This document shows positions 3,951 to 45,890 of a stretch of 64,000 nt of DNA, one piece after another. The notes beneath the pieces are model-generated. The model searched no databases. It was given only the letters and a program-made list of their open reading frames with translations, and had not been told where the DNA came from. Every line of letters begins with the position of its first letter. Position 1 is the first letter of the stretch. This DNA is from Flectonema sp. DT1601 (lineage: Eukaryota). The DNA lies in contig OZ025783.1 in the NCBI GenBank assembly GCA_964019425.1, positions 1,116,001 to 1,180,000 of the forward strand. The letters are read 5' to 3'. A program made the translations under genes and the position numbers.

Positions 3951-6900
3951 AGATGCATACAGTGGATTTATTATCAATCGTAAATAAAAAAAACACAATA
4001 ATAATAAAAGGGGGATGGGGAAAACTAACTTGTGCGAAGAGGGTACTTAATTCGCCTTTTGTAAATGACTGAATCTAGAAAAAAGTTAGCAACTTGATTT
4101 TGCTTGACAGTTAAAAGAATACCCATCATCAGTCTTACAGGATTAATTATGACGATCTATTTTTATTTATTTTTGTTACTTTGAGGGAAGGTGAGAGGCA
4201 AGTATGACAAGAGAGCAAACCCTCGGAACCAGCAACTAAACATCATAAGTGTTAAGCAGGTTTTCCAGATCTTGCCATACCCGTCGCCATAGCGAAGATA
4301 AAAAGACCAAAGGATGTATCAGCGTCTTCGGTTTTTCCAAAAGACGACTGCTCGTCCTTCTAATTAGTAACGATGTCATGAAACAAGCTGATGACTGATA
4401 AATGTGATTGATTGTTCAACGTAGTGGTAAAAAGAAAGTATCCGGTGTGGTTGGGACCTTTAAGGTTCCTTTATTGTACATATCCCTGTTCGGGAAGCAA
4501 AATTAAAGGTACTAGATCAAATCAAGCCCTAAATTAGTAACCCAACCGATAAGTGTATTTATTTAAGAAATAAATACTACTGAGGGACATAGTCCACTCC
4601 AGCCTCCTTCCACGCGGTGACGTGGCCGATAAGGAGGTTTTGAAATGTCTCACTGTATTCTTAATAACAAGTGATTAGCATTTGCTTTTACTTTTTAAAC
4701 GTTCCTCGGGCTAGGAAAACAAATACGAGGCCAACTCAAGATAGTGGAATTGGTCTTGTAGTATGTGAGACTAGGCTAGGTAGAGAAAACAAGAATAAGA
4801 AAGTCTGTTCTTCCTTCCACACGAAGTGGACTTTATAGGAAGTAAAGTTATCATCAGTAACAAGACGAGCAGTGCTCGACTTCTTAAAGTGTTTTATTTT
4901 ATTTTCGGAAAGGATTGGGACTAAAAATAACATACATGTCCAACATAAGTGGACTTGCTTAGCAGGGTTAGGTTTTGAAGGTGACCACGAGGGACTGAGT
5001 CCACAAAACAATTCCATCCACATTGTGGACTACATTGGAAGTTTGATCCCCTTCATAGTAATTGCTAGTTAGTAGGTCCGCGAGTCCAACTGGCCGAGCC
5101 CCAATACTACGGTAGTAGATTGAACCTAATCCCGGAGGATTATTTTGTTGGTTTCGGAAAGAAGCATACAAGATCTTGTTGTTTGTATTGTGTGATTGAG
5201 TTAAAAAAAAAAGGAATACAAGAGACTGAATCCCCCCAACTACTTCCTCTACTCTTGGGTAGAATAATCAGAAACTTGAAATTCGTGAACAAGAAAAAAA
5301 GCAAGAAGAAAACATCGGTCAGTATATTTTCTTGGAGCGAATGTTCCGTTACCTCTTCAAGCCTGCTGCCTTTGAGTGAGATTCCAGTCAGACGCAGCCT
5401 AGGCCTGAAGAGAAACATAGCAAAGGAATAACTAAAAGTAAATCTTAATAAGATCTGAACTCAATAAATACGTCGAAACGGTAAATCGAATATCGGGCGA
5501 GACCTTTTGCCCGCCAAGCGATAATCGCAGCTGACAAGAACTAAAAGAATGGGTGGAGATGGTGAGGGAAATCGTGATCACGAATCACTAAAAACAAAAA
5601 CAAATAAAAGAAAAGCTGCCTGCCGGCAGCTGTTGTAAACGTAATCTAAAACAACGATCGAACTGACGCGTCGTGTATAAAATACAAAACTTCTGTTCGT
5701 CAAAAAAAAAGAAAAAAGAAAAAATGTAAACATGATGGTTATCCGTTATGCTAAAAGATTGCAAAATAATCAACAAAAAGAGCGGTGGGGAAAGGGAGAG
5801 GATTTTTTCCTCCAAGCTTATTTTTCTTAACTAGTCTTCACCTACTGCTACACAAATGATATGAATTTCTCAACAATGGGACCCGGCGGGTGGGTTTCAC
5901 TAGTCCGCAAAGCCCCTCAATCGATTTCATAGCACCCAGAGTACGGCTGAGTATGGCTGAGTGCCTGTTTTCTTTCCCAAAACCTAAATTATTTTTTTTA
6001 TTTTTCACTTCTTGTTTTGATTAAAAATAAAAACGAAAAAAAAAAAAAAAAAAGAATAAAGAGAGGGGGGATAAAACATCAAAAAGAAAATAGCAAACTG
6101 TACTTTAAGAATTATAGTAAAGTGTATTTTGTGCGCAAATAAAAAAAAGGGCTAGAAAGAACCACCCAGCATTAACTGGGTTATTCAGAGGAATGAATTT
6201 GTGTTTGTTCTGTTTTTTTTTTTTTCGTTATTGCTTTTCAATGGAATTGTCTTCTCACAATGGTTCACGATTGCAACCCTACCTACTGTGCTGCTTGAGT
6301 AGATTGACATTCCGCAATAGAATAACAATTTAGGGAAGGTAGTAGCGCAACACGGAAGGCAACATGCTTCGTTCAAGTCTTGTGGTTTGATTCTCTAATA
6401 AATGCAAGAAAAGAACTACTAGACTAGTAGAAGGAAGGACTGAATGACGAGGAAGATTTCTGAGCAGCAGTCGAGTTCTATGCGAACCCCAGCAACTCAT
6501 TCACCCTTCGCATGCAATCCCTTACAAGACGGTAAGAACATTCTACCAAAAAGGGGAAAAAGTGGAACGCAAGGAATAGAAAAGTAGGAAATATAATTTT
6601 GGCATTAACAAAATCGGAAATTAGTTAACACTAATTATATTTTGTTCGTGTACGAAATCGTAAGCCAGATTAGCTGAGACAGTCAAAGAAAGGTTCACGT
6701 CTGCTCTCCCAGAAAGTGTTTTGTACCTTATTAGTTGCAAAGAATGGGCAAGAAAGGAAACAAGGCAAACTAACGATTAACAATAAAATAAAAAAGAAAG
6801 AAAAAAAAGAAATTAGCTTTGATAAAAAAGGTTAATAAAATCACGTAGAGCAACCCTGCGAAGACCAGCAAGAGTCAAGTAGTTCTTCCAGACATGATTC

Positions 6901-7115
6901 GCAATAACTAAATTGTATGCTAAGCAGCTATTTACCAATGCACAGGAAGGAGAGGTATAACGTAAAGCAAATTGCTAAAACCGCAGAACTGTTTTGCTCT
7001 TTCCGAAACTGACGACTTGCCGCGCAATTGTTGCTAATTTGTTATAGTTTAGATAGTACATGATTATTTAAAAAATTACATTTAAGAAAACAAAATAAGT
7101 CAAAACATTAAATAA

Positions 7116-7188
7116 ATTGTTCTGCTGTTCCGAAGAACACGTGTAGAAAACGTAGTTTCAGGGGGCCATAATCTTATACTATTTGTCC
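7116..7188. repeat. Short dispersed repeat, with a second copy at 58123-58189 and a fragment near 44275
   Basis: attgttctgctgttcc...acgtagtttcagg...taatcttatacta.ttgtcc is shared between loci 51 kb apart. Confidence 0.7.
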
Positions 7189-10100
7189 TTATTCCAAATT
7201 TCTTGTAAATAAGTTTCAAAAGTGGTTCTTAACGTAAGACGTGTGGTATAGTTGGATAGATTTATTACTTGACTTTTTAAGTAGAACGCAAAAAAAAAGG
7301 ACAATGGGTAGCGAAGAAGAGAAAAAAAGGGTAATTTGATACTGCATTCTTAAGCTCAAAGGGGTGAAGAAAAAAATTGTTTGACACATTACAAAAAATA
7401 TCACATACGACCACAGTAATTATTACTATAGACTTCTTTTTTTTTTTTTTTCCCACTAATTTTTTTTCCATCAATGGAATTTATAAATATTTTTTCGAGA
7501 AACCGAAGCACTCTTACCCCTATTCTCTCATCCTTAGTGCGAAGTGGAAGTAAGTCGGTCATATCTGGGGAGACCGAGCTACCGCGTTGACAGCTAGCTT
7601 GGGTTTCGTGAATGGAGGGGAAAGAGATAGACAGCAAACTCTAGACGTGAAAGGCGAAGTAAGGGAAGGGGGAAAATATTTTAATAAAATTATAAGAAAG
7701 AAAACGATTTTAAAAAAAAAAAAAAAAAAAAAAAGATGAATAATAAGTTCGAGCGTAGAAAAAAATAAAACCCGATGACAAAACATAATAGGGATCTGGC
7801 CACACATACCTCGTTGCGAACCCTAAGGAAAGCAACCTTGAAAGTAAGCAGCACGAGATGAAGAAAGAAAGGGATAACAACGATTAATAGATAGTTGGAT
7901 AATATGTTATGAGCGTTATCGAATACCGAGGGGAGAAAGAAAAAAATGAATGATTGAATAAAAAAAAATAATAAAAAGACAGCGGTAACAATAGCTCAAC
8001 CAAAACATACAATAGAACGAAAGAAGGCCACCCAACGTGAGGGGTACACAAAAAGAATGGTATCCCTGCACATCACAGAGCCGAAGACAAGAAAGTAAAA
8101 AAATTTTAAAGTTTTGATTCTTTTTTTTGTGCGCACAAAAAACTGCGATCTACGAAACCGCTTAACAGGAAACTCTCACTCACTCACTCACTGAACATGC
8201 TACTAACTACATTCAAATCTCGACAGCGCAACAGCATTTTCATGCTGCAGCCACACTCATAAAACCTGAGGATAACTCAAATTTAAAACAAGGTATGGGT
8301 TGGGACTCAAAAAGCAAGAGAGAGGCTGCCTTAAGACAGTTGAAAATTTAAGGACAGACTTCCCTTTCTTTTTTTTTCTTTTCAAAAGCCTCAAGGTTTG
8401 GCTTTAAAGCAATACAGATACGAAAATAATAATTATTTGCCAGGACCAATTAACTAACATAATCAGCAAAATCATCCGCGTGTTATCCAACATAAGAAGG
8501 CGAGACAAGCGCGCACGAAGCACCTTTGCTGAGGTAAGAATATTGATGCGTGTTCGTGGTTGGCGACTAAAAAAAGGTTTGATTTTTTTTTTTTGTGTAG
8601 TATAACATGCCTGACATCAGCTAGAACTATACCAGAGCACGGAGATCACTACAAAGATTTATTTTTATTCTATTTTTTTTTTTTTTTTTCGTTCTTCTCA
8701 AACAATACAAAATAACATTAACCACACGTTGAAGTGTTAGATATGTGGATGTGAATCTTGTCTGTGAAAAATTCTTGGAAGAAATTAAAGAAGAAAACAC
8801 CCCCACACCATTTGCAGGCGGGGTTTGCTGGAGTTACAAGAATGTAAAAAGAAAGAAAAGGACCAAGACATGTTGTCTCAGTTTGAAATTTATTTCGAGT
8901 GCTACTCGAAAAGGGTACAACAATAACAGAGGAATAACAACCGCGAAAATGCGAATCCTCAAAAACCCTGACAGACGGGAAAGGCGTTCCTTCCCCCGAC
9001 CACTGAGCTTCGAGTCCTTCGCAAATTTCTGACATTTGATACGACGAGGACTTCAAATATTTTGAACATCAGAAGCCTCCTGAAAGCTTTTATTTTTACG
9101 GTTTTTCCGTATGCAAGGTTCCTCAAACAACTAAATCAACAGTGTGACAAGAAGTAATGTACTAAAGTAACCCTCAACAGAATGTCGATGAGGCGCTCCT
9201 TGCCAATTACTCAGTTTTCTGATAACGATACTTATTTCCGAACTCTCTCCTTACGGAGCTACTTAGTTTTACAAAAAAGATATACTCATATAAATAACAG
9301 TGATGCTACATAATTGAATTTGCAAACAGTAGCCGCAAGAAATCACTATTATCATGAACACGCAATATGGGCAGCCTTTGTAGCCAATGAGTCAAGCAAG
9401 AAAAACAAAACTCCATCAACACGTTTGTATTGGCGGAGGATTAAGTTTTCCCCGACTGTTTTCTAAACCCACAAATCAATTTTAATTTTAGGAATATAAG
9501 TTAGTATAAGGTGTTAGTACTTTTGAGGGGGGGCGGAGAAAAAAAATTTTCTCTTTCATGCAAGGGAACTGAAGAGGTATTCCTCTTTGTTTCACCCAAT
9601 GATGATTTTTCTTCTTTTTTTTTTTTTTTTTTTAAATTTCTTCCAGTAAAGGACAAACGAATATCCGTATCAAGTTTAAACGGGTTGATAGATACAGAAG
9701 TCTATTAGCATATCGAGCATCACTCACTGATACCGCAAACTAAAGAGCATCTGGTTAGCAGAGCTACGAGGTAATTTAGTGAAATAAAATTGTTTAAAAA
9801 GATAATTCACAGGTAAGCTGTTGCATGATATAAAAAGGGGGGGGAAATACAAAAAAAAGGACTGAAGACAACAACATTCCAAAGAGGGACTCCTCCAAGG
9901 AGTAGTAATTGAGAATAATTCAAATTCATAACAGATGGGGAAAATTTATTTTTAAAAAAAAAAAGAAGAAAAAAAAAACTGACTGAAAAGAACGAGTCGT
10001 TAGTAGCAGCGCAACGAGTGAGTTGTTTTTGATTTGTTTCTTTTATTACTGTTGAGCGATTCTATACCATTTGGGGGTGTCAATAGCACCCACTTTTCTT

Positions 10101-11020
10101 TTCTTTTTTCATAATTACATAATAGGTGCTTTCCCTATGACGGATCGAAAACCCAATCACTGAAAGCATCTCTGATCTATTTTTTTTTTTCATTTCTTTT
10201 TAAGAAAACCAGCAGAGGGCTCTAACTACGAACACACAACAAGAACACGAACCAAAGAGAGAATGCGATTCTGGTATTGTTGTGCGCAGCGAACACATCA
10301 AAAACTGGTAGCCATTTATTTTTTATTTTTTATTGTCATTTTCCAATCGCTCAAATGGAGGGATAGATTCTCACCATCACCGTCACAAGTATCACACAGG
10401 ACGCAGCTTTTGTCTAACAAAAGTCTTCATCGAAGAATTGAGTTCATACACATTATAAGAAATCCTAAAGTAAACAATCACACTGCAGTACAGCAAAGAT
10501 GAAATAAGAGCTGTTTTTTTTATCAAATGCAGAGTGATTGAGAAGACTTAACGTAATGTGAAAAAGCTGTTTGAATACACAAACAGAGGTATCGAAGTAT
10601 TTTCAATTTCTTCGTTAAAAGAACTATGTTATCAGAACAACAAATGTCATTGTCAGTGTGAGGGGGGTGGGGAAGGTGCAGAAAGGAGAGTTTGTTATTA
10701 CTTTAATTTGTCATTATTACTTTAGGAAGGGAGAGACAAAGGTAAACTACATTCAAAGCTGTCATCCGACTTGAACACTAAAAAATACTCGGAAGGCAAT
10801 TTTGATATATTCCTCGCTGAATAAATAACAAAACTGCCAGAAGTGAAGAGGAGAGAGTTCACCGGGTACACCTACAGTTCAAATGAACAACAGCTTAGCA
10901 CATAAATTCCTTTACTACATTATAACATAACGTGTAATTGATATTATCATCGTTTTAGAAATACGAAATAAAGGATTTATAACTTTATTACCACATCTCC
11001 CATCCGCAAAATGATTGCAC

Positions 11021-11479
11021 CTACTCTGAGACAACAAACTTTGCCAAGTCTGATGGTGAGACGAATGTTTCCCATTCGAGGTCATTAAGAAATCGTACTT
11101 CGAGTCTGTTCAGTTCTTTTGCTTCCATTCCGAAGCTGCTTGCGTAGTAAGAGTTGGTAGCTAAGTCCATGCAGTCGCATTGGTACTTTGTCGCGACAAC
11201 CAATGCACTTACCAAAATACGATGAACTGATAAAGATGTTACTAATAATCCTTTCTTTACAGCTCTCTGAATGTAAAGAGCAGCCATTACGACAACTACG
11301 TCTGGTGCCTCTGACGTTCTCTGCCACCATCTGATCACCTGAAGAAGTGGTGACTTTGATGCAGCACGTCCATCGTAGTACGTAACCTCTCTCGGGTTCT
11401 CAGCGTTTACTTTATCTCCAATCTTAGCAAGCTTTGTGAACATTGAAGCAATATCGGTGTCAAGAATGGTCATCGACAT
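11021..11479 (-). CDS. PHO80/U-type (kinetoplastid CYC2-like) cyclin, copy 1
   Basis: 152 aa. Cyclin-box motifs AALYIQR, SVHRILVSALVVATKY, NSYYA..FG...KELNRLEVRFL..LEW. Confidence 0.9.
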   Translation of the reverse strand: MSMTILDTDIASMFTKLAKIGDKVNAENPREVTYYDGRAASKSPLLQVIRWWQRTSEAPDVVVVMAALYIQRAVKKGLLVTSLSVHRILVSALVVATKYQCDCMDLATNSYYASSFGMEAKELNRLEVRFLNDLEWETFVSPSDLAKFVVSE

Positions 11480-13701: not shown

Positions 13702-14160
13702 CTACTCCGAGACAACAAACTTTGCCAAGTCTGATGGTGAGACGAATGTTTCCCATTCGAGGTCATTAAGAAATCGTACTTCGAGTCTGTTCAGTTCTTT
13801 TGCTTCCATTCCGAATCTGCTTGCGTAGTAAGAGTTGGTAGCTAAGTCCATGCAGTCGCATTGGTACTTTGTCGCGACAACCAATGCACTTACCAAAATA
13901 CGATGAACTGATAAAGATGTTACTAATAATCCTTTCTTTACAGCTCTCTGAATGTAAAGAGCAGCCATTACGACAACTACGTCTGGTGCCTTCGATGTTC
14001 TCTGCCACCATCTGATCACCTGAAGAATTGGTGACTTTGATGCAGCACGTCCATCGTAGTACGTAACCTCTCTCGGGTTCTCAGCGTTTACTTTATCTCC
14101 AATCTTAGCAAGCTTTGTGAACATTGAAGCAATATCGGTGTCAAGAATGGTCATCGACAT
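13702..14160 (-). CDS. PHO80/U-type cyclin, copy 2
   Basis: Same motifs as copy 1; differs from it at 3 residues (L/I, E/K, S/R). Confidence 0.9.
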   Translation of the reverse strand: MSMTILDTDIASMFTKLAKIGDKVNAENPREVTYYDGRAASKSPILQVIRWWQRTSKAPDVVVVMAALYIQRAVKKGLLVTSLSVHRILVSALVVATKYQCDCMDLATNSYYASRFGMEAKELNRLEVRFLNDLEWETFVSPSDLAKFVVSE

Positions 14161-22151: not shown

Positions 22152-25100
22152 TTATCTACGCAGCGCTTCTTGTTCTGCTAATCTTTGCTGAAGGACTCGT
22201 TCATCAATTGTGTTGGCGACTATAAATCTGGTTACGAATACTTCTTTCAGTTGACCAAAGCGATGTGCTCTTCCTACTGCTTGTTTCTCTAAGGCTACAT
22301 ATCTGTCTAAGGATGGAGCTAACAGAGGATGAACAAAAACAACATTTCTTGCTTGAGTTAAGTTCAACCCAGAGCTTCCTTCATCTAAAGGTAGTAATAA
22401 TATCTTAACATCTGGCTTTTGGAATGCTTCTATTGCCGACACTTTGTCGTTGTCAAATAAGGTTGAGAACGTTGCCTTGCATCTCCTGAGCTCATCAACT
22501 ATTAAGCTGTGTAGTTCCCGAAACTGAATGAATGCCTGTTTTGTGTTTATTGATATTTTATAATTTACTATTACTATTTAACAACTATACACCAATACAT
22601 ACCAATACTTTCTCATCTTGGTAACTTGCAGTACCAACAATAAAGTGAACTACTTCCTGTATTTTAGTTGGAGTGTTGTCAGGTAAATCTTCTAATTGAG
22701 ATCGCAAGACGATATCAGCGTTCTTGACGAGTGCACTGCATCCCCGGACAGGACATGTATCGGCATTTTCTGCAGAAGATAAAAACTCTGAAGAACATCC
22801 ATAATGTCCACAACATGTTGTAACACAAGGTTCAGATGGTATTGAATCAGTATGAGCAATAGTGTGGACATCACAGATCACATCACTGCGGTGGATGTTG
22901 TGACTTTTTTGCAAGAAACGCAGACTCCGAACTCTAGTCACATATTCTCGAGTACTTGATCGAAGGATGTGAACTTTTTCGTTTAACTCAAATTCAGTTG
23001 GTGTTTTTGTCAACGTCAGTTTAGTCTTTTCAGCTTCTGAAATCCTGGCCTTCAACCAATCTTTAACTTCGATATCTTCACTTGAGGCAGCGTCGTACCA
23101 GTTCTCCATCTTACCCCAGAAGTGTGGGTTTTTTAATTTTAATCGAATTCTGTTTCGCATTTGGGTCGCTTCTTTTAACAAATGAACGACACGCTCTGCG
23201 CATTGTTTCAGTTGAGATTGCCTGATACCCACAATATTCTTGTACGATTGCATTACACTCTTGTCTTCATCGTACAAGTTATATGTACAAGCGAGTTTAA
23301 CGAGAACCTCTTCAGGAGATGATGAGGTTCCCAAAAGTTGTGCAAATCGTTTCTCGCGATCATTTCCATCGCCGTTCCCACTCCAACGCTGGCCGGAATA
23401 TTGGGACACGTCAAGTGATTTAAAGAGAGATTCGAGTTCAGAATATATTGAACTGTGTGTGTGGGACATCCTTACAATTTGAGAATGAAAGCTGATCGGT
23501 AATTCATCAATCTCAGCGATGTTTTGCCTTACAAATATATCAATAAAACTCTGAGCTATAATATTACGATGAGTGTACCAAGCAGAGGATTTGACTCTCG
23601 ACATGGCATGGAATCTCTCAGCATCAGTTAAACTTTTCTTATTAACATTTTCAACAAGAGGCTCACCGATATGAACGCCGAGCAATGTAGCCATTTTTGA
23701 TACGTCGTCAAAGGTTGTCACACAAGGTGTTCCGGATAATAACCATATTCGTTGCCTACGAAGGTTACTTATCACAGCAAGCTGCTCAGTGTTGTCTACA
23801 ATAAAAGAAAACTCGTCAACGATAATTCTTTTCCACAATATCTGTTCTATCTTCATTGCTGCCTTCTCAGCATCTGTCAAGGCCGAGTAAAGAAAAACAA
23901 ACCTTCTTCCCGTAGCGTCAGCAAATTGTGAAGGCATTCTGGATCTAGCAGAGAGTAAAGTTGTTGTTATAAATACGACTGAGACACTGGCCAGTCTGGA
24001 AAGTGATTTCGAGTTTAAGTCTGAAAGAGTCCTTAGAACGATGTAGTCGAGAGTGTTTCCTAAAAACTTACGAAGCTCTTGAGGCCATTGAGATATTAAA
24101 TGAGAAGGTACAACTACCAGAGTTGCTGCACTCTTCACAATTGGATTTGATTCATTCGACGAGGCGATTGATGTGATGCTTTCGGTGTCTTCGTCTGACT
24201 TCGTTGCTGCGATCAGCGCCAAAGAAATTACTGTTTTTCCATATCCAACTTCATCAGCCAACACCCCACCGCACACGATTTTCGGTATGGTAACTCTTCC
24301 TTCGACTAGGATGTTACAAAATAAATCGTTTTCAACTTCCTGCTGTAAGAACGGAATTTGTTTTGAATCTTCTCTTTCAATCATCCACGACAAGGAACGA
24401 AGTTGTTCCTTTCGTAGAGTCTGATCGTCTTTGAATTGTGGTGGTTTTGAGTATTCAGGATTCCCTCTATTTGAGAGAAGCTCTTTAACTGTAAATGGAA
24501 CAAAGCCAGTGCTGGTATCACTAACCCGTAGAGCTCTCCAATCATAATTCATTCTCTGACCATCACATGAAATCATTTTAGAAGAGGAGGTGTGAACTAA
24601 CATTACAGGATTTATATTTACTCTCAGATCACTGTGAGTATCAGATATCCTTCTAAGTTGTGCTGAAACCCCCCTCGGTTTTCTCTTTAGAGCCATTTCA
24701 TATTCTGCAGCCATCTCTCCCGACTCGTATGGGTGTCCTTTTGAAGTCCATTTTATATCAGGTTGAGGTGGAGAGCAGGCAGCACATTCAAACTTTGATG
24801 CGGATGATATATTTTGCCAGTTGGAGAATTCTTGAGGGAACGACATGGAAGCGAGTACCCAACTAATGTCACTCCCAGAGCAGGGAAACCAAAGATCGCT
24901 GTGTGATATTTGATTCACCTGACACTTTGCAATAGTAATTGACAAAGAGCAATTATTATATTCAAGTGTTGGTACCTTCTTGGGTAATGACAGATTATCA
25001 AATGGTGTGATTACTTCTAATGATCCTGGTAGGTCTACGAAACGACCAAGTAGTGTGCATTCAATAATCTCTGATTCTACACTACCAGGTTTCCATCCTT

Positions 25101-28100
25101 GTTTACACAACAATATTGGATCAGTTGGCTCTCCAGCTGACATCCTCGCTGAGTAGCTGTCAGCTATTTCACAGCTGTCATTTTTCGGTTCGCCCATGAT
25201 GTCAGGATTTAGGTATAAAAATGATTCTTTATCGTGTTCAAGGTTGCTGTTATCTCTTTTATACAACATTCCTATTGCAGCACCACATTTAGGAAGCCGT
25301 TGATACACTCCATCAGCTGCCGTCATTTCTCTCTTGTCTCCATTTTTTAACACCAGCGTATTAAATATTGTTCTGTTTGATACTTCAGTTAGACCAAGAG
25401 AGACTTGCCAAGAATCACCAGGATCAGACCCTGACACAGTCATAGCTAATGTGTCATGTACAGGTATTCTTAACTTGATAACTCCATTGGTGTAGTTAAA
25501 CGATGTTGAGTCAGTTGGATAAATACAGTCGACTGTAAGAACAGGTTTCTTATTACCAACAATAGCGAAGAATGGATGTTTGCATGCTTTAGTAGTGTAC
25601 AAAGACCATCTACCAAGAGGATGGTTTTCATTTATTGATAACGTTGCTCGTAAAGAACCCGATTCAGATATGTACGAAGCAGTCCATTTACGAGATCTAA
25701 CAACTCTGACGTAGCGTAAAGGAGATTCTAAATAATGCTGAAGTTCTTTGACGTAGATTTTCCAGTTATCGCAATCAACTCTGGCATTGAAATCCTCATG
25801 GCTATCATCTAACACAAATCTAAATCTCTTTGGTAGTATAGTCAACAACACATCATGTACTACAGAGAAGTCAAGTCTAACTAAATTCTCAATCGGTTCG
25901 AATACGTGTTGTGGATTTCCAGCACATCCAACACAGGAAGTGTAATTACAACTTTTACACTTCACAATTTGATTATTTGATAAAGTCCCACTCTCACAGC
26001 TGCAGTGCATCGCAGCTTTGTGAAATGATAAAAAGTAATCTAATCCTTTATTCTGATTACATGACTCGACATCTTTTATAAAAGTAGATTGAAAGTCTGT
26101 TGGTTCAGTGCTATCGAGTACAGGTAGTTCTGTTCTTCTGTTGATTGGATCACTATTTTTAGTATTTTTAACCGTAAGAGGGAAAGCTGTAAGTATCGAT
26201 GAGATAATACAAGCACCAACAACAGTACTACTCATTGCATTCCCAGCTAAGTCTGCCAGCTGACGATCAGTTTCACGAGTAAGAACCAAATCATCGATTG
26301 GAATCCCTTGTAAGAAAAGTGTTTCCGCTCCGATAATTGGTCCTCCTCTGTTAGAAATGTATGCAATCATAGTTGGAGTGAGACATGGACAGATTCCACG
26401 TGCTGATGAATTCCCTCTATCAACATTCTGTGATAGATTCCATACTCGACATCTCCAATGAGCATCATCAGGATCACTACCATTACCACATCCTAAGTAT
26501 CTCAGATCAATTAAATCATTTACACGATTTGGTTGACCAGCAATCCACTGCTGCCAACTCCAATCAGGTGGTTTGACTCCGCCCTCATTCCAATTTGTGA
26601 CTGGTCGCTTTGGTCCTAATCCTCCAGAATTCCTCTCCTTTGCATGTCGAAGTTCACATCGACCCCAATCAATCTTTTTACGAGCTAACTTTACAGTTAC
26701 TTTATTCTTTGCTTGTAAGACTCGCGGATCATCATCAGGAAGGAGGAAGTGATCGAGTACTGGACCTGAAAACTTTTCTAATGATGCCACCATGTTACCC
26801 CACGCCTGAAGCTTTGATGGAGTTCCATCTAATGCAGCACAAAGATAACCACGTTGACGAGTTTGAGGAATGTAATAATTCTTCGTATCGAGACGTAGAT
26901 ATCCCGCGTGGTATCTCTTACCGCCGGGCAGCTTGAGTTGATTAAAAAGGTTGGCCATTTCATCCCAAGGAGCGCCTCTGACATTCTCAAGGATAACAAT
27001 CTTTGGAGCGTATTTCTTTACGTAGTCGAGCATTCCTTTAAATGTTTGACCCGACTGACCACCTTCATCAATACCTTTTCTGAATTTATTAATGGTACTG
27101 AAATCCTTACAAACAGTTCCTGCAATAACAATATCAACCTGTCCAGGGACGGGTACTGAACTACCGTAAGCGGTGGTTGCCTTTGGATTTGCGAGTTCTC
27201 GAATGTCGCGAAAAAGAAGTTTTGGATGAAAGTTTCTCTCAATATAAGCTTGTTTATAAGGTTCTATTTCACAACTAAACACGTGGTTGAATATATGAAC
27301 ACCAAAAGCCTTCTCAAACATCTTCAGTGCGAGTAAAGGAGACTCGGTACCTGAACACATCGTCGCAACTTCTATCGGTCTTGAAATGCCTTTTAAATTC
27401 CTAATCAATTGAGGGTGAAGTTTTGTTAATTTGGCTGCCATGTCAGAAAACATGTCCTGAGGCTGTGAGATAACATTCTCTAGCAACAGAGGATTGTGTT
27501 TTAGGATTTCTTTTTTTTGAGCTTGAGTCATCTGTGAATTCGGTTTTATAAGTGAGGAACCGACTACTGGTTGCTTCTCTACTTGTTTGTTAGTCTTTTT
27601 TTTAACTTGCTTTTTAACTTGTCTTTTAACCTTTGGTCTGGAATCACTACTACTACTACTGCTATCACTGGTAAACCCACTAATGTAACTGCTAGAGCTA
27701 ACTGTTGAACTGATAGTGCTCCAGTCGTCATAGTTTTTCTTTACGTTTTGTTTTTTAGCTGGTTTTTGTTTTTTAACTGCCGGTCCCTTAGTTGGTGCCT
27801 GCTTTTTCTTCGTTGGTGGTAGAGGCTTCTTCACTAGTTTTGATTTCTTCATTGGTTTCTTAGACACCAACAACTCTACAGAAGAACTTGATATTGAAGA
27901 GGAAGAACTGGAACTATCAGAAGTAGTTTCAGTGGGGCTTTCACTGGTGTCTTCTTCCGATAAGACATTTAGAAGTGCGACACATCCTGACACAGAGCGT
28001 CCAGGAACAACACCAAACCTAACCTTTCCAAAAGGCATATTCGTCTTACTCTTAATTTGATAACAAACATAAGTTGGTTTACCGTCGACCATTATCAGAC

Positions 28101-29115
28101 CACTTAGCATGAATTTAGGTGGTGTTATCACAACAAAACTAACTGGTCGAACACCTCCAATACATCTGGCAATTCGAGGACAGATGATTTCAAAAAGTCC
28201 AGGTGGAGGTTCATATTGTTTCAATTCATCTGAATTCATCGTGTGAGGAATTATCTTTGCAATCTGACTGAGAGATAGCCTAGCTCTAAGTTGATCAATT
28301 TGAGACTGAGTTAATGGAGGAGGACTTTTACAAACATCGTAATCACAACGACAAGCAGCCCATTTTAGTAAAGTAGCGACAGCTCCTACAAAATCTTCAG
28401 AAAACCCTTCCACAGTATTTTGATCTATTACCTCACAGGCAGGTTTTGGAATCGCAGCATCTTTCCAAGCAGATAGTTCTGCTCCCCATTCACCTTGGCG
28501 GTTATTTTTGATGGCAGGTCCGTATTCCATCGCTGATTTATATTCACTTGATACTCGATACCAATTCTTAAAGAGAGATGACTGCACCCATATACCTCCC
28601 CAGGTATCTGTGTGTGGTTGTTGATCAGAAACCTTCCTCACGTGGAATTGAACTGGAGCTGGTTCACCAGGAACAAGCTGACCCATAAAGCAACCCTGAG
28701 CAGTACCACTGACAGTAACACTTTTGTTATTTTGTAGAGCGTCTGATATGGTTGAGTAACCTTCAACAAGAACTCCTTCGATTTTGAACTGAGGATTGAA
28801 GAGATGTCTATTAGGACCTTCCTCACCTACTAATTCAGCTACTGTTTTAGCGTAAGCAATACCAGCGCAGTCTTTACCACATTCATCTAGTAAGCAGAAT
28901 GGATCTGCGTCGCGGAGGATGTCAAGCTGACAGGCATCCTCTTCAGGAACTATTTCCATTAAAAGTTTGATTGCCTCTCTATGAGAATCATCTAGTGCCA
29001 TTGGAACTGGATAGTTCAACCTATCTAGGATCTCAATCAACAGTATCATGCATCCTGTTTGCAGCTGAACTTGTGACTTCAAGTCTGCCGACTCGGTCAT
29101 ATTATCGACCTCCAT
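22152..29115 (-). CDS. DNMT5: DNMT5-type cytosine-5 DNA methyltransferase-SNF2 ATPase; join(22603..29115, 22152..22535)
   Basis: MTase motifs ATMCSGTESP, SCEIEP, IAGTVCKDFS, LENV, PQTRQRGY, LAGNAMS. SNF2 motifs GGVLADEVGYGKT, IVDEF, LLSGTP; RING-like CCGHYGC..CPVRGC. A GTATGT...AAAACAG intron at 22536-22602 joins EKVL|AFIQF to the helicase-C exon (GLNLTQA, QAVGRAHRFGQ). Confidence 0.93.
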
Positions 29116-29383: not shown

Positions 29384-30478
29384 CTACAAGGCTTTTTTAC
29401 TTCTCTTAATACCTGACATTACAGCAGGTCCTACCTCTTCGGATGCTGTAGGTGCAGGTGCCTTTCTCTTTTCCTTCTTTCCCCGGTGGGCCTTAAAGTT
29501 TCTAGTACCCATGGTAGCTAATTCCTTAGACTGATGACCAACGTGAATAGTTCCCTTAACACCGTGCATGTCTTTTGATATGTTCTTTTCATTCTTCTGA
29601 ACTTGTCCTCTTGGAACCTTACACGCGTGACTGTTGTGTTTTGTTTTGTTTTGTTTTTCGAATGAATCTAAACTAAAAGGATAAATAACTAAACACTCAT
29701 ACCGAAACAGTTGAGGTGTTGCGAGTAAACATCTACGAACATCAAAATCAATATTTGGACCAGCGTCTTCTAATTCAACTTTTGGAATCTTCTCTCCTGA
29801 TTTCTTAAACGCAACGTTGTAATGACGAAATAATATAACAGCATTGTTTATTGTACTTCCATCATCAGATACGGTGATTTCCTTACTCACGTCTTTTGGT
29901 TTGAGGGTTACGGAAATCAAGTGATCAAGACCTCCCAAATGTACCTTAGTGATAACCTGTCCTCTGAAGAAGTCAACTAGTAAGTTTTGAACTCTCTGTA
30001 AAGTTGGGTGAGTTGAAAACATCTCACCCTGGAAATGCATTATAGGTTTACTTCCGACAGCTATACGAGCATCACGCATGGCTTCATATTTAGTAACTCC
30101 CAGTTCTAACATGTCTAATAGTTGGTAATCAAAGTGCCTTCCAAGAGTAATGTTGTGAGGCCTCTTTTGCTTGCTGTGATTTCCAAAACAAAATAACGAG
30201 CAGTCATTTTTAAATGACAAGAATTCTAAATGTTTTGATTCTTCAAATGGTCTGAACTCGTTCTTTTTTGTAAATTTAACTGCGTTGGGTTTCTTCAATA
30301 AAAACAAGTCAGTCATCACATCTTGAGCTACTTGACTGCATTTTTCTCCTTTTAAAAATAAAGCAGATTTCGTGTTTTCTACAAGCTTAGGAAGTACTTT
30401 TTTCAACGCTACTTTTGATCTGTGATTCTTTGGGGCTCCGCGGACGAGACCGCCGGAGGTAGTGTGGCCGCTTACCAT
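29384..30478 (-). CDS. RPF2: Ribosome biogenesis Brix-domain protein RPF2, with a 72-nt in-frame intron at 29631-29702
   Basis: ENTKSALF, LKKPNA, PFEE...LEFLS.KNDCSLF.FG.HSK.KRPHN, DMLELG, VELEDAGP. Removing GTATGA...ACACAACAG deletes a non-homologous stretch (LFR|HACKVP). Confidence 0.92.
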   Translation of the reverse strand: MVSGHTTSGGLVRGAPKNHRSKVALKKVLPKLVENTKSALFLKGEKCSQVAQDVMTDLFLLKKPNAVKFTKKNEFRPFEESKHLEFLSFKNDCSLFCFGNHSKQKRPHNITLGRHFDYQLLDMLELGVTKYEAMRDARIAVGSKPIMHFQGEMFSTHPTLQRVQNLLVDFFRGQVITKVHLGGLDHLISVTLKPKDVSKEITVSDDGSTINNAVILFRHYNVAFKKSGEKIPKVELEDAGPNIDFDVRRCLLATPQLFRYECLVIYPFSLDSFEKQNKTKHNSHACKVPRGQVQKNEKNISKDMHGVKGTIHVGHQSKELATMGTRNFKAHRGKKEKRKAPAPTASEEVGPAVMSGIKRSKKAL

Positions 30479-31162
30479 TATTAATGTGGAGTGGCTGAAA
30501 TAAAAAAAATTACTTGAGAAACTCTGGTGTAGTTCCCAAAAATGAATCGACTTAACTATCGACATACCTGTGACTGAAATAAAAAGAACTACTTTTTTAT
30601 CAACTCAAGAAGTGATTGAATTGTCGGGTGACCCCGTCATTTAATCTCTCTTTTTTTCTTATATCCCTTCTAATGGGCAAAGTGAATGGGGTAACTCAAG
30701 GTATGTACTAAAAGAGTAAATAATTGTTTTACAATCTCGTGTGTTTTTTTTTTTTTTTTTTTTTTCCCCTGTCTGCATCTTGGGGAAATTCTAGTTGCCT
30801 AGCTAAGAACGAGAAAACAGGTTCACTGTGACGGTGTCATCTACCTCAACATGTCGTTATAGTTATTGGTTATTATGACCTCAGTAAATAGATAAAGTAT
30901 TGAGGTAGCAGATAAACTTTTTTTCAAAAATATAATAAATAAATGAAAGTTCCTCAACCTTTCAACTAGTCATAAAGTACTAAAGAGAAATAATAAAATT
31001 AACTTCCGTACAAAGAGACTTGTCAAAAAGGGAAGTGACTTAAAGTATCTATGATTAGGTGAACCTCTGACAACCATACACTTGTTGATTCATTGACTTC
31101 ATACTACTGACTCGGATGTCGTACTTCAGATTGAGAAGAACGAGATGGAGACAACACGAAAT

Positions 31163-31482: not shown

Positions 31483-34400
31483 TTAACTCAGACTCGGAAT
31501 GTACGGAGCTGGCGGGATCGAACCGGCCAGAGTATCTTTTATCTGTTTGGGTTTTGTGGTATTTTCCATTCTTTTCGACATCAAAGGAATTATTAAAGTA
31601 GTCTAACCCCAGCCATTGACCTCCTTGTGTATGATGATGTGATAATGCAGAAGAGGAGAAGCAGTTCGTAAATAGTAATTCTAGCCGAGTATGTTGCTAA
31701 CTTGAGCTTAAAGAACATTTTTATAAACGAACAAACAACCATTACGAGTGCTGCAGGGTCACATACCCCAGTAGCTAAAAACGGGGGATTCGTCTCCCTG
31801 TCAGGGCGATCGGACTCTTCCGCCGTCATGACATACGTTCGAAGTTGTTTTGATTGTCCGGGTAATAGGACTAATACTACCCCAGCCATTGACCTCCTTG
31901 TGTATGATGATGTGATCATGCTTGAGGCTGGTTGTACCGAGGCATTGTGATTAGTACTTTAGTGGCGTAATTCACGAGGTGTGTAAAAGAAAGCTTTTGA
32001 GGAGAATCAGTAAATTGAAAACATCGTCGAAGCACACGGCTCAGGTCTTGAAACACATTTAATTTAATATCATCAGAGAAAGGTGGAGAACGGAGACTGA
32101 CAAAACACCACAAGTGACACCCGAAGGTGATTGAAGTGATTGAATATGATGCAAAGAGAGAGCGTGTCAAAATGTTTAATTTAATACAAAGCTTCTCAAG
32201 GAAAGAATAGTAATTCTAGCCCCAGTCATTGACCTCCTTGTGTATGATGATGTGATCATGCTTGAGGCTGGTTGTACCGAGGCATTGTGATTGCGAGAGT
32301 GTGTGGATGTGTGTTGCGCGTGGGTTGCGCAACTCACACAAAGTGTCAAAGAAGACATCAGAAAGAGGAGAAACAGTTCGTAAAATAGTAATTCTAGCCT
32401 CAGCCATTGACCTCCTTGTGTATGATGATGTGATCATGCTTGAGGCTGGTTGTACCGAGGCATTGTAATTGAGAGTGTGCGTAGATGCGTGTTGTGTGGG
32501 GGCTGCGTAATTCACAAGGTGTGTCAAAGAAGACATCAGAAAGAGGAGAAACAGTTCGTAAAATAGTAATTCTAGCCTCAGCCATTGACCTCCTTGTGTA
32601 TGATGATGTGATCATGCTTGAGGCTGGTTGTACCGAGGCATTGTAATTGAGAGTGTGCGTAGATGCGTGTTGTGTGGGGGCTGCGTAATTCACAAGGTGT
32701 GTCAAAGAAGACATCAGAAAGAGGAGAAACAGTTCGTAAAATAGTAATTCTAGCCTCAGCCATTGACCTCCTTGTGTATGATGATGTGATCATGCTTGAG
32801 GCTGGTTGTACCGAGGCATTGTAATTGAGAGTGTGCGTAGATGCGTGTTGTGTGGGGGCTGCGTAATTCACAAGGTGTGTCAAAGAAGACATCAGAAAGA
32901 GGAGAAACAGTTCGTAAAATAGTAATTCTAGCCTCAGCCATTGACCTCCTTGTGTATGATGATGTGATCATGTTTGAGGCTGGTTGTACCGAGGCATTGT
33001 GATTGAGAGAGTGTGTGGATGCGTGTTGTGTGTGGGTTGCGAAATTCACAAGGTGTGTAAAGGAAAGCTTTTGAGGAGAATCAGTAAATTGAAAACATCG
33101 TCGAAGCACACGGCTCAGGTCTTGAAACACATTTAATTTAATATCATCAGAGAAAGGTGGAAAACGGAGACTGACAAAACACCACAAGTGACACCCGAAG
33201 GTGATTGAAGTGATTAAATATGATGCAAAGAGAGAGCGTGTGTGAAAATGTTTAATTTAATACGAAGCTTCTCAAGGAAAGAATAGTAATTCTAGCCCCA
33301 GCCATTGACCTCCTTGTGTATGATGATGTGATCATGCTTGAGGCTGGTTGTACCGAGGCATTGTAATGGAGAGTGTGTGTTGCGTGGGGGGCTGCGTAAT
33401 ACACAAGGTGTGTCAAAGAAGACATCAGAAAGAGGAGAAACAGTTCGTAAAATAGTAATTCTAGCCCCAGCCATTGACCTCTCTGTGTATGATGATGTGA
33501 TCATGCTTGAGGCTGGTTGTACCGAGGCATTGTAATGGAGAGTGTGTGTTGCGTGGGGGGCTGCGTAATACACAAGGTGTGTCAAAGAAGACATCAGAAA
33601 GAGGAGAAACAGTTCGTAAAATAGTAATTCTAGCCCCAGCCATTGACCTCTCTGTGTATGATGATGTGATCATGCTTGAGGCTGGTTGTACCGAGGCATT
33701 GTGATTAGTACTTTAGTGGCGTAATTCACAAGGTGTGTAAAAGAAAGCTTTTGAGGAGAATCAGTAAATTGAAAACATCGTCGAAGCACACGGCTCAGGT
33801 CTTGAAACACATTTAATTTAATATCATCAGAGAAAGGTGGAAAACGGAGACTGACAAAACACCACAAGTGACACCCGAAGGTGATTGAAGTGATTAAATA
33901 TGATGCAAAGAGAGAGCGTGTCAAAATGTTTAATTTAATACAAAGCTTCTCAAGGAAAGAATAGTAATTCTAGCCCCAGTCATTGACCTCCTTGTGTATG
34001 ATGATGTGATCATGCTTGAGGCTGGTTGTACCGAGGCATTGTAATTGAGTGTGTGCGTAGTGTGTAGGGGCTGCGTAATACACAAGGTGTGTCAAAGAAG
34101 ACATCAGAAAGAGGAGAAACAGTTCGTAAAATAGTAATTCTAGCCTCAGCCATTGACCTCTCTGTGTATGATGATGTGATCATGCTTGAGGCTGGTTGTA
34201 CCGAGGCACATCATTAATAAAGATGACATTAACATTCCATGATAAGGAAAGAATGAAGTACTAGTCCTGAAGTTGAACAACACACCTGTTTCAATTCAGC
34301 TATTGCGAGAAGGTATGCATTGGCCTGGTCAACTTTTTCTTCAGATGAAAGATTCTTTCGCTCGTGTTCGAACCACGTTGACCTGTTTGGTAAAATGTGA

Positions 34401-35940
34401 AGTTGCTTCCACAAAGAAGACATCAACTGTCTATAAACAATAAAACATACTGGAACTGAGTGAGAATTCCTTGCAGACGCTTTGAAAGATCGACATTTGA
34501 TTTTTGAAGCCTATCAAGTTGAGCCTTTGGTGTCATCCCTGACATTGTTGATAACACTGGTGATGCTGATTGTTTAGTTGCTGAAGGTTTAACTTCCTGT
34601 GGTACTGGTACCAATGGTGCAGGAGCGCGTCTTAGTGGTGCTTCATCTGTGACGGCAACTGCGTGCCTCCGTGGAAGGAAAGCTTTGAGAGGTGAACCAG
34701 ACCAATCGACAGCTTTTTCAACAAAAACTGTCACGTCCTCTACAGGAGGATATCTCATCAAACGTTTTAACGTTCCGCTGTAGTCTCTCGACTGTAATTC
34801 TTTACTAACAAAGCTAAGCATAGCTGCTCCAATTAAAGGTAACAATCCCATCTCTAAAGGTGTTAATCCACTATCACTGTATGAGATAGTCGCACTGTTA
34901 TTAACTGAATGGTAAAGTAGTTCTGTTAGGACTGCATCCCAAAGAGGAGCGGATCCACTTATATCGAATTCTCTTATAAACCAAACTCTGAACCATCTTA
35001 ATGCGTAAACTGTTGGTTCAACACCGTGTTGATGAAGATGTTTTGCTAGTTTAGCATCATAACACGGTAAGATAGTACTCTGTAATCTTGAACACAGTCT
35101 GGTTATCGGTGTTTCTTCATCTGGATTTTTACTGCGATCTCGAACAACTTTATACCAACTCTTCAGATTTGATTCCTTTCCGTTCATTAGTCGATCGAAT
35201 AAGAAATAAGCGTCAGCTTCGATATCAGCTGTTTGTGTTGGTAACATAATCTCAAGAATATCAAGTATTTCAGGAGATATTGATTGCTTTATAGCTGGTG
35301 TTGCTGTCTTTAAAGAATGACCATCGTACCATAAAAAGTAAACAAATGAAGAGACCAAATCATGCATCCCTTGTCGATATCCAGTGTCTAAGTTCTCTAA
35401 TGAGAATGTCTTAAGAATATTGAGCATGAGAGCTCTGATTTCAGGTTTCTCGAATAGGATGTCATCACCAGACATTCTGGTGAGATCTTTTTCTATTTCG
35501 CGTTGAACTTGTTTTTGTTTGAAGTAAATACTCCATCTTGAATCTTTGTCATCGGAGAGTGGATTCTCTACCATCAACAACTCATCATCTTCATCATCGA
35601 CATCAGCATGAGGATCAACGTGATGCTTCTCTTTGTGAGAGTGATATAATTTCCGTTTTTCCATAACATCCACTTCCCATTGATCGAGAATCTCAGCTGC
35701 TGTCATTTTCTTACTCTCGGCTTTCGGAGGATGCGATACTTCACCGAGGAATATTTTCCAATATATTGATCTGATATTCGTTTTTTTCATTCTACCCATC
35801 CCTGCCCGGTATGCGTTCTCTATAGTATAATTTGAGAGAAGCTCTTCAAGCTCGGTCACCATTTCTTTCAGAAGACAGGGTCGTATCGGTTCAGGGATAG
35901 ATTCTTCATCACTGGTGCTTTCATCAAAGCGACTGGTCAT
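31483..35940 (-). CDS. TBC1D5: Rab-GAP TBC1D5-like protein; join(34451..35940, 34286..34382, 31483..31542)
   Basis: RSIYWKIFLG, NPLS....SRW, IEKDLTR, GYRQGMHDL, EADAY, YALRWFRVWF.REF, LMRYPPVEDV. Splicing yields the C-terminal motif AIAELKQ|IKDTLAGS, matching the TBC1D5 LKQIKDIL.GS motif. Confidence 0.88.
32007..32076 (-). ncRNA. Box C/D snoRNA, copy 1, with an LSU rRNA guide
   Basis: UGAUGA (C)...GUGUUUCAAGAC-CUGA (D')...CGACGA (C'-like)...CUGA (D). The 12-nt guide is the perfect complement of the conserved LSU sequence GUCUUGAAACAC. Confidence 0.85.
33081..33150 (-). ncRNA. Box C/D snoRNA, copy 2
   Basis: Boxes and guide identical to copy 1. Confidence 0.85.
33761..33830 (-). ncRNA. Box C/D snoRNA, copy 3
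   Basis: Boxes and guide identical to copy 1. Confidence 0.85.
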
Positions 35941-44261: not shown

Positions 44262-44794
44262 TAAAAAAAACACAATTGTTCTGCTGTTTAACACAACAGT
44301 GAACAAGATGCTTGGGTTTGCAAATACATTTCAGAATAATTAATTATCTTTTTTTTTTTTTTTTTTTTTTTTTTTCTTCTTTGCGCCGATGCCTCAAAGG
44401 AGTAGAACCCACTTCAGGCGCAATAAAAAAAATTATCTTATTCACCACTTTGAAGGGAAATACAAATCACACAAAAAAAGGGTATATTTATGAAACAAAA
44501 TGAAAGTAGGAGAATTAAAAAAAAGAAGAAGAAAAAAGGATAGTGTACGGGCGGATAGCTTTCAAAGAAGTGTCTGCGGAGGGTACCAGTTTGTAAAGGA
44601 AAAAAATAATATTTGGTGTAAAGAGCGAAACAACATCCCCCTTGTATTTCAGTCTTGTCCGCCAACGAAAGCTGTAAAATAGAAAAAATTAAAAATCAAC
44701 AAATCTATTGTCGTCTACCCAGCAGTTATGCTGGGCGATCTTTTGATCAAAGTTTCTCAATCGTTTCATTCGATCTGATTGACAACTACCTCTC

Positions 44795-44994
44795 NNNNNN
44801 NNNNNNNNNNNNNNNNNNNNNNNNNNNNNNNNNNNNNNNNNNNNNNNNNNNNNNNNNNNNNNNNNNNNNNNNNNNNNNNNNNNNNNNNNNNNNNNNNNNN
44901 NNNNNNNNNNNNNNNNNNNNNNNNNNNNNNNNNNNNNNNNNNNNNNNNNNNNNNNNNNNNNNNNNNNNNNNNNNNNNNNNNNNNNNNNNNNNNN
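44795..44994. other. Assembly gap (200 N)
   Basis: Run of N characters; it interrupts the MINDY CDS. Confidence 1.
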
Positions 44995-45890
44995 ATCGTA
45001 GAGAAGTGATTGTTTCGAAAGAAGACACACAACTCACCATCTTCTAATCCGTTAGTCAAAGCAAAGAGTCCTCCATACGATAGTTGTGATGCTGTAGTGT
45101 TCATAAATGACTCAGCTACGATACCTTTTTGAATGACGTCAGCATTTTGTTCTGATTCTGGTTTACAACTTTCATCATTTTTATTAATAATCAACTCAAC
45201 GAGTCCGTTATATGATTGGTCTTTAACAATATCATAGTGTTCATCACCTTCTGAGGGAAGCCATCCGTGAACTAGTTTAATACCGAAAGCATCAAAACAT
45301 GCGACACCTGGTCCTAACTCACATCCCTTTATGCTGCTGTACTTTATGTTGATATCCATACCCTTTTCGAGTGAGGGTAATAATGAGATTGCTTCATTTA
45401 GAGCCCATTGAGTGTTTGGGTCATCAGCTAATCCTCTCATAGCAAGTCGTTCTTTTAAAGCGTCGCCTACCATTACGACGAGGTCTGAGAATGTAACACA
45501 CGCTCTGTCTTCGTGTATTGTTATAACGTGTTTTAGTAGTAAAATGTTGGTAATCGCAATCAGAGGACAGGGTCCGTTTTCATTTTGAGTGATGATACCA
45601 ACACGATTTCCTTTATATAATATCCTCTTAATCATGTAAAGAGATTCTTCTTTCGGTGCTGGTGGTTGAGGCTGGACAGCCGCCTCTGGGACAGGCTGCG
45701 ATGAAACCGCCTCCGGCTCGGGTGCAACAACTTCACCTGTAGTTGGCATTTCATTCACAACTTCCACTTCTTTCTCCATATCAAGTTCGTCAATTTCATC
45801 TGTCGTTTCTATTGTCTGAGGTTCTAAGGGTTCGCTTTGCTTTACATCCTCTCGTTGGTGTTCATTCACTTCTTGTGAGTCATCAGTCAT
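44995..45890 (-). CDS. MINDY-1/2 family deubiquitinase; 3' part lost in the assembly gap
   Basis: Catalytic Cys motif TQNENGPCPLIAITN; LVHGWL; QLSYGGL; His motif VFFRNNHFST. Confidence 0.9.

Follow-up and report, generated by a model that had tools for sequence, protein, structure and literature searches.

A tandemly amplified cluster of two candidate rRNA-modification guide genes within the last intron of a diplonemid TBC1D5 gene

The window analysed here is a 64,000-nt stretch of contig OZ025783.1 from Flectonema sp. DT1601, a marine protist of the Diplonemidae (Euglenozoa). On its minus strand, an ORF at 35940-34423 encodes a RabGAP-TBC domain (Pfam PF00566, E 4e-23). A protein search matched nine proteins, the window's own included, and the four named close relatives are all diplonemids: Flectonema neradi (P0002, the closest at 75% identity), Diplonema papillatum (55%; its record is named TBC1 domain family member 5-like), D. 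japonicum (49%), and Lacrimia lanifica (47%). Two further homologues from ENA (P0005 and P0006) are 48-49% identical to the host protein. A preliminary description of this DNA had named the gene TBC1D5, which functions in membrane trafficking, and the name holds; the host is a euglenozoan, and the closest proteins are diplonemid. Metagenomes scanned with an alignment of diplonemid TBC1D5 yielded 22 loci of 23-30% identity and no near diplonemid orthologue; Rfam, applied to nine of these 22 loci, found no match, and it also misses the array described below.

The surroundings of the gene hold several features of their own. The next gene downstream (29384-30565, minus strand) belongs to the Brix-domain family of ribosome-assembly proteins and shares its strand with TBC1D5. 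Farther along the same strand lie an ORF of 2176 residues (22585-29115), which from its motifs we take to be a cytosine methyltransferase fused to a SNF2-type helicase, and two nearly identical ORFs of 152 residues (11021-11479 and 13702-14160), a local duplication that presumably encodes cyclin-like proteins. Positions 1-11000 include approximately 10 kb without an ORF of more than 120 codons, and some segments there, such as those near 3030 and 3870, are duplicated.

The coding sequence of TBC1D5 is divided by two introns, and their removal gives a protein of 548 residues whose last 26 residues equal those of the TRINITY-derived F. neradi protein. Intron A, absent from the preliminary description, must also be excised to reach the exon ending in AIAELKQ. 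Its donor agrees with the Diplonemidae consensus G/GTATG except at the exonic base. The genome-derived ENA proteins P0005 and P0006 part from the alignment at the very codon where intron A starts, which suggests that these homologues may have an intron at the same position. Intron B hosts the array. Across its junction (34286/31542), the last seven residues of exon 2 and all 19 residues of exon 3 are identical to F. neradi P0002, and the same C-terminal motif is contiguous in D. japonicum, L. lanifica, and the NCBI protein of D. papillatum. Among all AG dinucleotides between 31400 and 34280, only the one at 31542 opens a peptide beginning [IVL][KR][DE], and YTRAY motifs lie on the minus strand at 31596 and 31584. 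Because the spliced C-terminus equals the F. neradi protein across the junction, intron B is very likely real, the support being a relative's transcriptome-derived protein and not reads from the organism itself. The proposal that the array sits between the AIAELKQ and IKDTLAGS exons of a GT-AG intron is thereby borne out, and the case that had been named against it, an mRNA in which the last exon goes unused, is unlikely because both the junction and this exon match relatives.

Other readings of the junction were considered and set aside. Read-through into intron B would append an unrelated tail of 18 residues that lacks the conserved motif, and recursive splicing finds no foothold, as none of the seven internal GT[AG][AT]G sites is preceded by AG. 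GTATG donor-like sites are present at 31766 and 31836 (minus strand) in the unique stretch near the 3' end of the intron, the former agreeing with the Diplonemidae G/GTATG consensus. The EukProt model of D. papillatum terminates exactly at AIAELKQ, a hint that this species may carry an intron at the same place as intron B. Introns of the D. papillatum genome reach 72 kb (genome paper). In four Diplonemidae, 97-98% of introns are GT-AG, with A-rich acceptors, CA-rich motifs, and median lengths of 41-107 nt (PMC12621601, in excerpt).

Between the GT and AG of intron B lie 13 intact units, all on the host sense strand: ten 72-nt hairpin-AGA units and three box C/D units (Table 1). Read from the donor, the order is H1, H2, spacer B, CD1, H3, H4, H5, spacer B, CD2, H6-H10, spacer B, CD3, H11, with repeat periods of 169-170 nt and 178 nt; H11 is followed by approximately 185 nt of unique sequence, the remnant H13, the truncated H12, and the acceptor. 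These counts, together with strand and class, agree with the preliminary description, which listed two degenerate hairpins and to which H13 is added as a third remnant. The layout suggests that a cassette of hairpin, spacer B, and C/D unit was tripled and that the hairpin unit was then amplified further. No further copy of either unit occurs elsewhere in the 64-kb window. A candidate third snoRNA in the 125-nt spacer or at 31700-31870 was dropped, the fold z-scores there being -0.02 to -1.2. Rfam assigns no family at its gathering score over the array, and across the whole window at E values up to 5 it returns four weak matches, all unrelated. A run of N at approximately 45660-45870, inside the ORF 44766-45890, marks the assembly as scaffolded, which bears on the copy number of the array.

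Table 1. Exons and introns of the 3' part of TBC1D5 and the units within intron B, in the order of transcription
Feature	Coordinates	Strand	Evidence or remark
TBC1D5 coding exon 1 (RabGAP-TBC domain)	34451..35940	-	Pfam PF00566; 75% to F. neradi P0002
Intron A, 68 nt, GT-AG	34383..34450	-	Removal restores alignment to P0002-P0004 and P0007
TBC1D5 exon 2, 97 nt, ends AIAELKQ	34286..34382	-	Splice model
Intron B, 2743 nt, GT-AG (ends CAG), array host	31543..34285	-	Junction peptide equals transcriptome-derived P0002
Hairpin-AGA unit H1, intact	34136..34207	-	Start 34207
Hairpin-AGA unit H2, intact	33966..34037	-	Start 34037; top of stem I changed from U-G to U-A
Box C/D unit 1, C box to D box	33761..33829	-	C box at 33829; D' guide 33799-33810
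Hairpin-AGA units H3, H4, H5, intact	33288..33697	-	Starts 33697, 33528, 33359; period 169 nt
Box C/D unit 2	33081..33149	-	C box at 33149
Hairpin-AGA units H6-H10, intact	32212..32995	-	Starts 32995, 32817, 32639, 32461, 32283; period 178 nt
Box C/D unit 3	32007..32075	-	C box at 32075
Unit H11, hairpin intact, AGU instead of AGA	31871..31943	-	Likely dead
Remnant H13, 3' end of unit and start of spacer	about 31651..31686	-	
Unit H12, 5' third missing, AGA kept	about 31599..31648	-	Hairpin not folding
TBC1D5 last exon, 19 codons and stop, begins IKDTLAGS	31483..31542	-	19/19 residues equal P0002

The hairpin-AGA unit comprises a stem I of 7-8 bp, a 5' pocket arm of 7-8 nt, a stem II of 5 bp, and an apical hairpin; one unpaired U separates stem I from AGA, and 14 nt separate stem II from AGA. 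The model for trypanosomatid H/ACA-like RNAs has a stem-loop of 57-91 nt, a stem I of 5-8 bp, and one to three unpaired nucleotides before AGA, with the pocket 13-16 nt from AGA and 3-9 bp of target pairing on each side of the unpaired U (PMC2613932, in excerpt). The Flectonema unit falls within these ranges for single stem-loop length, stem I, AGA spacing (in ten copies), and pocket distance. The base preceding stem I is U in 11 of 11 aligned copies in place of the usual A, which in trypanosomatids is a tendency, U being rare but not absent (PMC2613932, in excerpt). The hairpin is the minimum free energy fold in three of the four intact copies folded, with modest z-scores of -1.9 to -2.8 for the four; when the whole transcript is folded, identical neighbours can pair wrongly with one another. 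A two-hairpin H/ACA form was dropped, since any hairpin in the downstream spacer is at chance level (z -0.02).

Targets were sought on surrogate rRNA, namely contaminating rDNA of other eukaryotes, not of diplonemids, present in prokaryotic assemblies. The eukaryotic LSU pattern that was used matches at least 38 stretches of species-representative prokaryotic assemblies, most of them clearly eukaryotic rDNA contamination and one (L034 of L024-L061) looking like a chance match; a single viral contig also matched the LSU motif, and no rRNA was found there. The pattern contained the C/D target. It also included 4 nt of the target for the hairpin, which makes the hairpin count partly circular: among the matches listed, 30 of 38 loci have their single best pocket pairing at the U tract of LSU helix 39. 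Of the remaining eight, four have no site and four have another best site. On the surrogate rRNA, the pocket forms 7 + 4 bp around the unpaired U, with part of the 7 overlapping stem I.

The top weak match in Rfam, the 5' hairpin of yeast snR5 (RF01252; E 0.69 and 0.12), leads to the same tract, and this similarity is not independent of the helix-39 match. With only the 5' hairpin aligning, at 18-24 bits against a threshold of 45, the unit falls outside the snR5 family. Yeast snR5 guides Ψ1124 of 25S rRNA in helix 39 (PMC2794176, in excerpt), and a yeast rRNA fragment places this pseudouridine at the fourth U of the tract (PMC5062969 supplement, in part). The two RNAs have similar pocket sequences, face the same U tract, and carry AGA after the hairpin; they differ in that snR5 has two hairpins and that even the better match, at 24 bits, stays below 45. 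The Flectonema pocket is also one base shorter on its 3' side, so its target may be the neighbouring U: on the standard sequence, it faces the third U, the base immediately 5' of the snR5 site. The predicted target thus lies at, or one base from, the yeast snR5 pseudouridine. In T. brucei, a pseudouridine in H39 is reported to be developmentally regulated. In the parts of the literature examined, which include PMC7672448, no T. brucei or Euglena guide was identified for the sites predicted for either unit.

The three C/D units are 100% identical over 81 nt. From C box through D box each is 69 nt long, with UGAUGA near the 5' end, CUGA (D') and a degenerate C' internally, and CUGA (D) near the 3' end, an arrangement that fits the box C/D class. 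The C box is preceded by C, so that the first-position purine is absent, and the unit has no terminal stem. The 12 nt ending at the D' box are perfectly antisense to a conserved stretch in the 5' part of the LSU rRNA, within the 10-21 nt range of such guides; the match recurs in 38 of 38 listed surrogate loci by construction of the locus pattern. The D-box guide has no consistent target across these surrogate loci. 2'-O-methylation falls at the fifth base from D', and by this rule the target would be the second U of the conserved GUCUUG, which we take to lie two bases before the conserved m1A (yeast 645). The window-wide scan for antisense elements before CUGA disclosed no other convincing C/D gene, and an 11-nt rRNA-antisense stretch before CUGA at 4395 (plus strand) is not set in a convincing C/D frame. 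A C(UUCG)G tetraloop on a 4-bp hairpin occurs at approximately 33862-33873 (minus strand), with two further copies in spacer B, approximately 40 nt ahead of the C/D units. This hairpin might block the progress of an exonuclease or serve as a cutting signal; the fold of the spacer as a whole is at chance level.

Both unit types therefore have a plausible rRNA target, and the targets, which had not been named in the preliminary description, bear on whether the array could be an unrelated minisatellite with boxes and complementarities arisen by chance. Such a reading could draw on the lack of any Rfam match at threshold, on the modest fold z-scores, and on the fact that 21 of 300 hairpin shuffles paired equally well or better with some U of one rDNA locus. 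None of those 300, however, did so at helix 39. With one 8.5-kb rDNA locus as the target, two of 1000 C/D shuffles produced 12 nt or more of antisense directly before CUGA; with seven loci pooled, 13 of 500 did. Chance would also have had to produce two units that fit two snoRNA classes, lie on the host sense strand, and each face a conserved LSU core site. A minisatellite origin is thus very improbable.

Variation among the copies provides a second line of evidence. In seven copies preceded by a type-A spacer (21 non-independent pairs), the hairpin cores differ at 34 of 1491 positions (2.3%) with no indel, whereas the spacers differ at 128 of 2116 positions (6.0%) with 24 gaps; the cores thus have approximately one third of the spacer substitution rate. 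All three variable stem positions among the seven distinct copies retain a standard pair, a count that carries little weight because no stem pair has changed on both strands of the stem and the copies are paralogues of recent origin. Three adjacent cores and three 107-nt spacers are identical, so the amplification is recent, and because the first 50 nt or so of the spacer, its 5' half, are as invariant as the core, part of the core conservation may reflect this recency. Taken together, the comparison gives moderate support to selection, which would be acting on the hairpin cores.

The same data can be read as a neutral tandem repeat, seeded by one or two ancestral intronic snoRNA genes, in which most copies would be passengers and maturation would be confined to the outermost units, if it occurs at all. 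Decay in three copies, the identity of adjacent cores and spacers, and the invariant start of the spacer are what such a repeat would leave behind, and D. papillatum introns often hold tandem repeats of parts of their own gene. A passenger repeat accounts poorly, however, for cores that change more slowly than their spacers and without indels, for stem variants that keep their pairing, and for variant cores interspersed among different spacer types. We regard this reading as distinctly unlikely.

The intron, its ten hairpin and three C/D units with the boxes they carry, and the complementarity of these units to conserved LSU rRNA are features of the DNA itself, and from them we infer the expression and release of the RNAs. 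It is likely that the last TBC1D5 intron is a tandemly amplified cluster of two probable rRNA-modification guide genes that are cotranscribed with their host and cut apart after splicing. In this scheme, Pol II would transcribe the array within the TBC1D5 pre-mRNA, and cis-splicing would join 34286 to 31542 and release a lariat of 2.7 kb. The Cbf5 complex would bind the AGA hairpins and the fibrillarin complex the C/D units, while an endonuclease would cut the weakly structured spacers and exonucleases would trim the products to about 72-75 nt and 75-80 nt, respectively. Internal endonucleolytic cuts would be needed because 13 units share one intron and trimming from the ends would halt at the outermost snoRNPs. 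The mature AGA RNA would guide pseudouridylation in the helix-39 U tract, its C/D counterpart would direct 2'-O-methylation to the second U in GUCUUG, and unequal crossing-over would amplify the units and leave the copies at the 3' edge to decay. Polycistronic snoRNAs are cut by RNase III in yeast and plants, and the enzyme for trypanosomes is described as unknown (PMC2613932, PMC3273796, PMC4855143, all in excerpt). D. papillatum encodes two Dicer-like proteins. The array spacers contain no conserved cleavage hairpin above chance (fold z -0.02 to -1.2).

Genuine snoRNA genes might instead be released the trypanosome way, independently of cis-splicing, through a spliced leader added at pyrimidine-tract/CAG sites inside the intron, polyadenylation taking place upstream, or by co-transcriptional cutting, so that snoRNAs and TBC1D5 mRNA come from different transcripts. 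Precursors of T. brucei snoRNAs are trans-spliced and polyadenylated, essentially all D. papillatum mRNAs bear a spliced leader, and six of seven type-A spacers contain a pyrimidine run followed by CAG approximately 35-45 nt before the next hairpin. The CAG is absent, however, before H10 (which follows a type-A spacer), H1, H3, H6, and H11, where the cores are equally well kept, and it may merely have been copied along with the repeat unit. The last exon, moreover, is perfectly conserved, and therefore the intron must often leave whole. This route is accordingly unlikely to be the means of release. A more speculative and rather unlikely possibility is that the two kinds of splicing compete within intron B: leader addition at the repeated pyrimidine-CAG sites would yield single-guide precursors at the cost of full-length TBC1D5 mRNA, and intron-rich euglenozoans would then show how intron-hosted arrays became the free, trans-spliced clusters of trypanosomes.

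With 13 intact candidate snoRNA units on the sense strand of one intron, whose junction rests on a relative's transcriptome protein, the locus is a well-supported intronic polycistronic cluster of two predicted guides, and cleavage after cis-splicing is the preferred reading of their release. Intron, host, units, and classes all support the earlier proposal of an intron-hosted polycistronic array that joins euglenozoan-style clusters with intronic hosting. The novelty that had been claimed stands in part: the combination is undescribed in the literature searched, while intronic polycistronic clusters as such were already known from Ostreococcus and Chlamydomonas. A description of diplonemid guide snoRNAs was not found among the titles and abstract openings searched, and the word snoRNA is absent from the text and seven supplements of the D. 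papillatum genome paper and from the main text of the diplonemid intron paper. The literature compared also includes PMC11613528, PMC2784804, PMC7672448, and PMC12508059, all in excerpt. The main Euglena literature is represented by titles and citations, and an intronic snoRNA cluster may have been published for Euglena.

Each ingredient is known; what appears new, in the literature searched, is the union of an intronic cluster and AGA guides of the euglenozoan single-hairpin kind, seen here in a diplonemid. The locus carries this form of guide into the diplonemids, which are among the most abundant marine eukaryotes, and into a spliceosomal intron. A compact array of two guides with sequence-marked copies, in a group that has a genetically tractable member, offers a convenient substrate for finding the enzyme that cuts such clusters and for learning which kind of splicing, cis or trans, opens the precursor. 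It is also a warning for annotation, since such an intron resembles satellite DNA and can lead to a gene model that lacks the last exon.

Known systems resemble the Flectonema array in different respects. Drosophila has intronic H/ACA clusters; there, as in green algae and plants, H/ACA RNAs take the standard two-hairpin form, in contrast to the single hairpin found here. Intronic polycistronic snoRNA clusters have been described in plants (PMC7671301, in excerpt) and, by its title, in a paper on Chlamydomonas (Chen, 2008). Clusters 3 and 5 of Ostreococcus come close in that several snoRNAs share a host intron and need internal cleavage; nearly all Ostreococcus snoRNA genes are single-copy, however, whereas in the Flectonema intron one guide has been amplified at least tenfold (PMC7671301, in excerpt, for Ostreococcus). 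Among euglenozoans, Euglena gracilis has clustered, polycistronic guide genes with several isoforms (Moore and Russell, 2012, by title and citing sentences) and single-hairpin guides (PMC2613932, in excerpt). The trypanosomatid clusters are alike in mixing single-hairpin AGA and C/D genes in head-to-tail, polycistronic repeats (Myslyuk, 2008, PMC2613932; Michaeli, 2012, PMC3273796; Chikne, 2016, PMC4855143; all in excerpt). They are unlike it in that their precursors are trans-spliced and polyadenylated in genomes nearly free of introns (PMC11613528, in excerpt), while the Flectonema array is housed by a protein gene, in an intron removed by cis-splicing.
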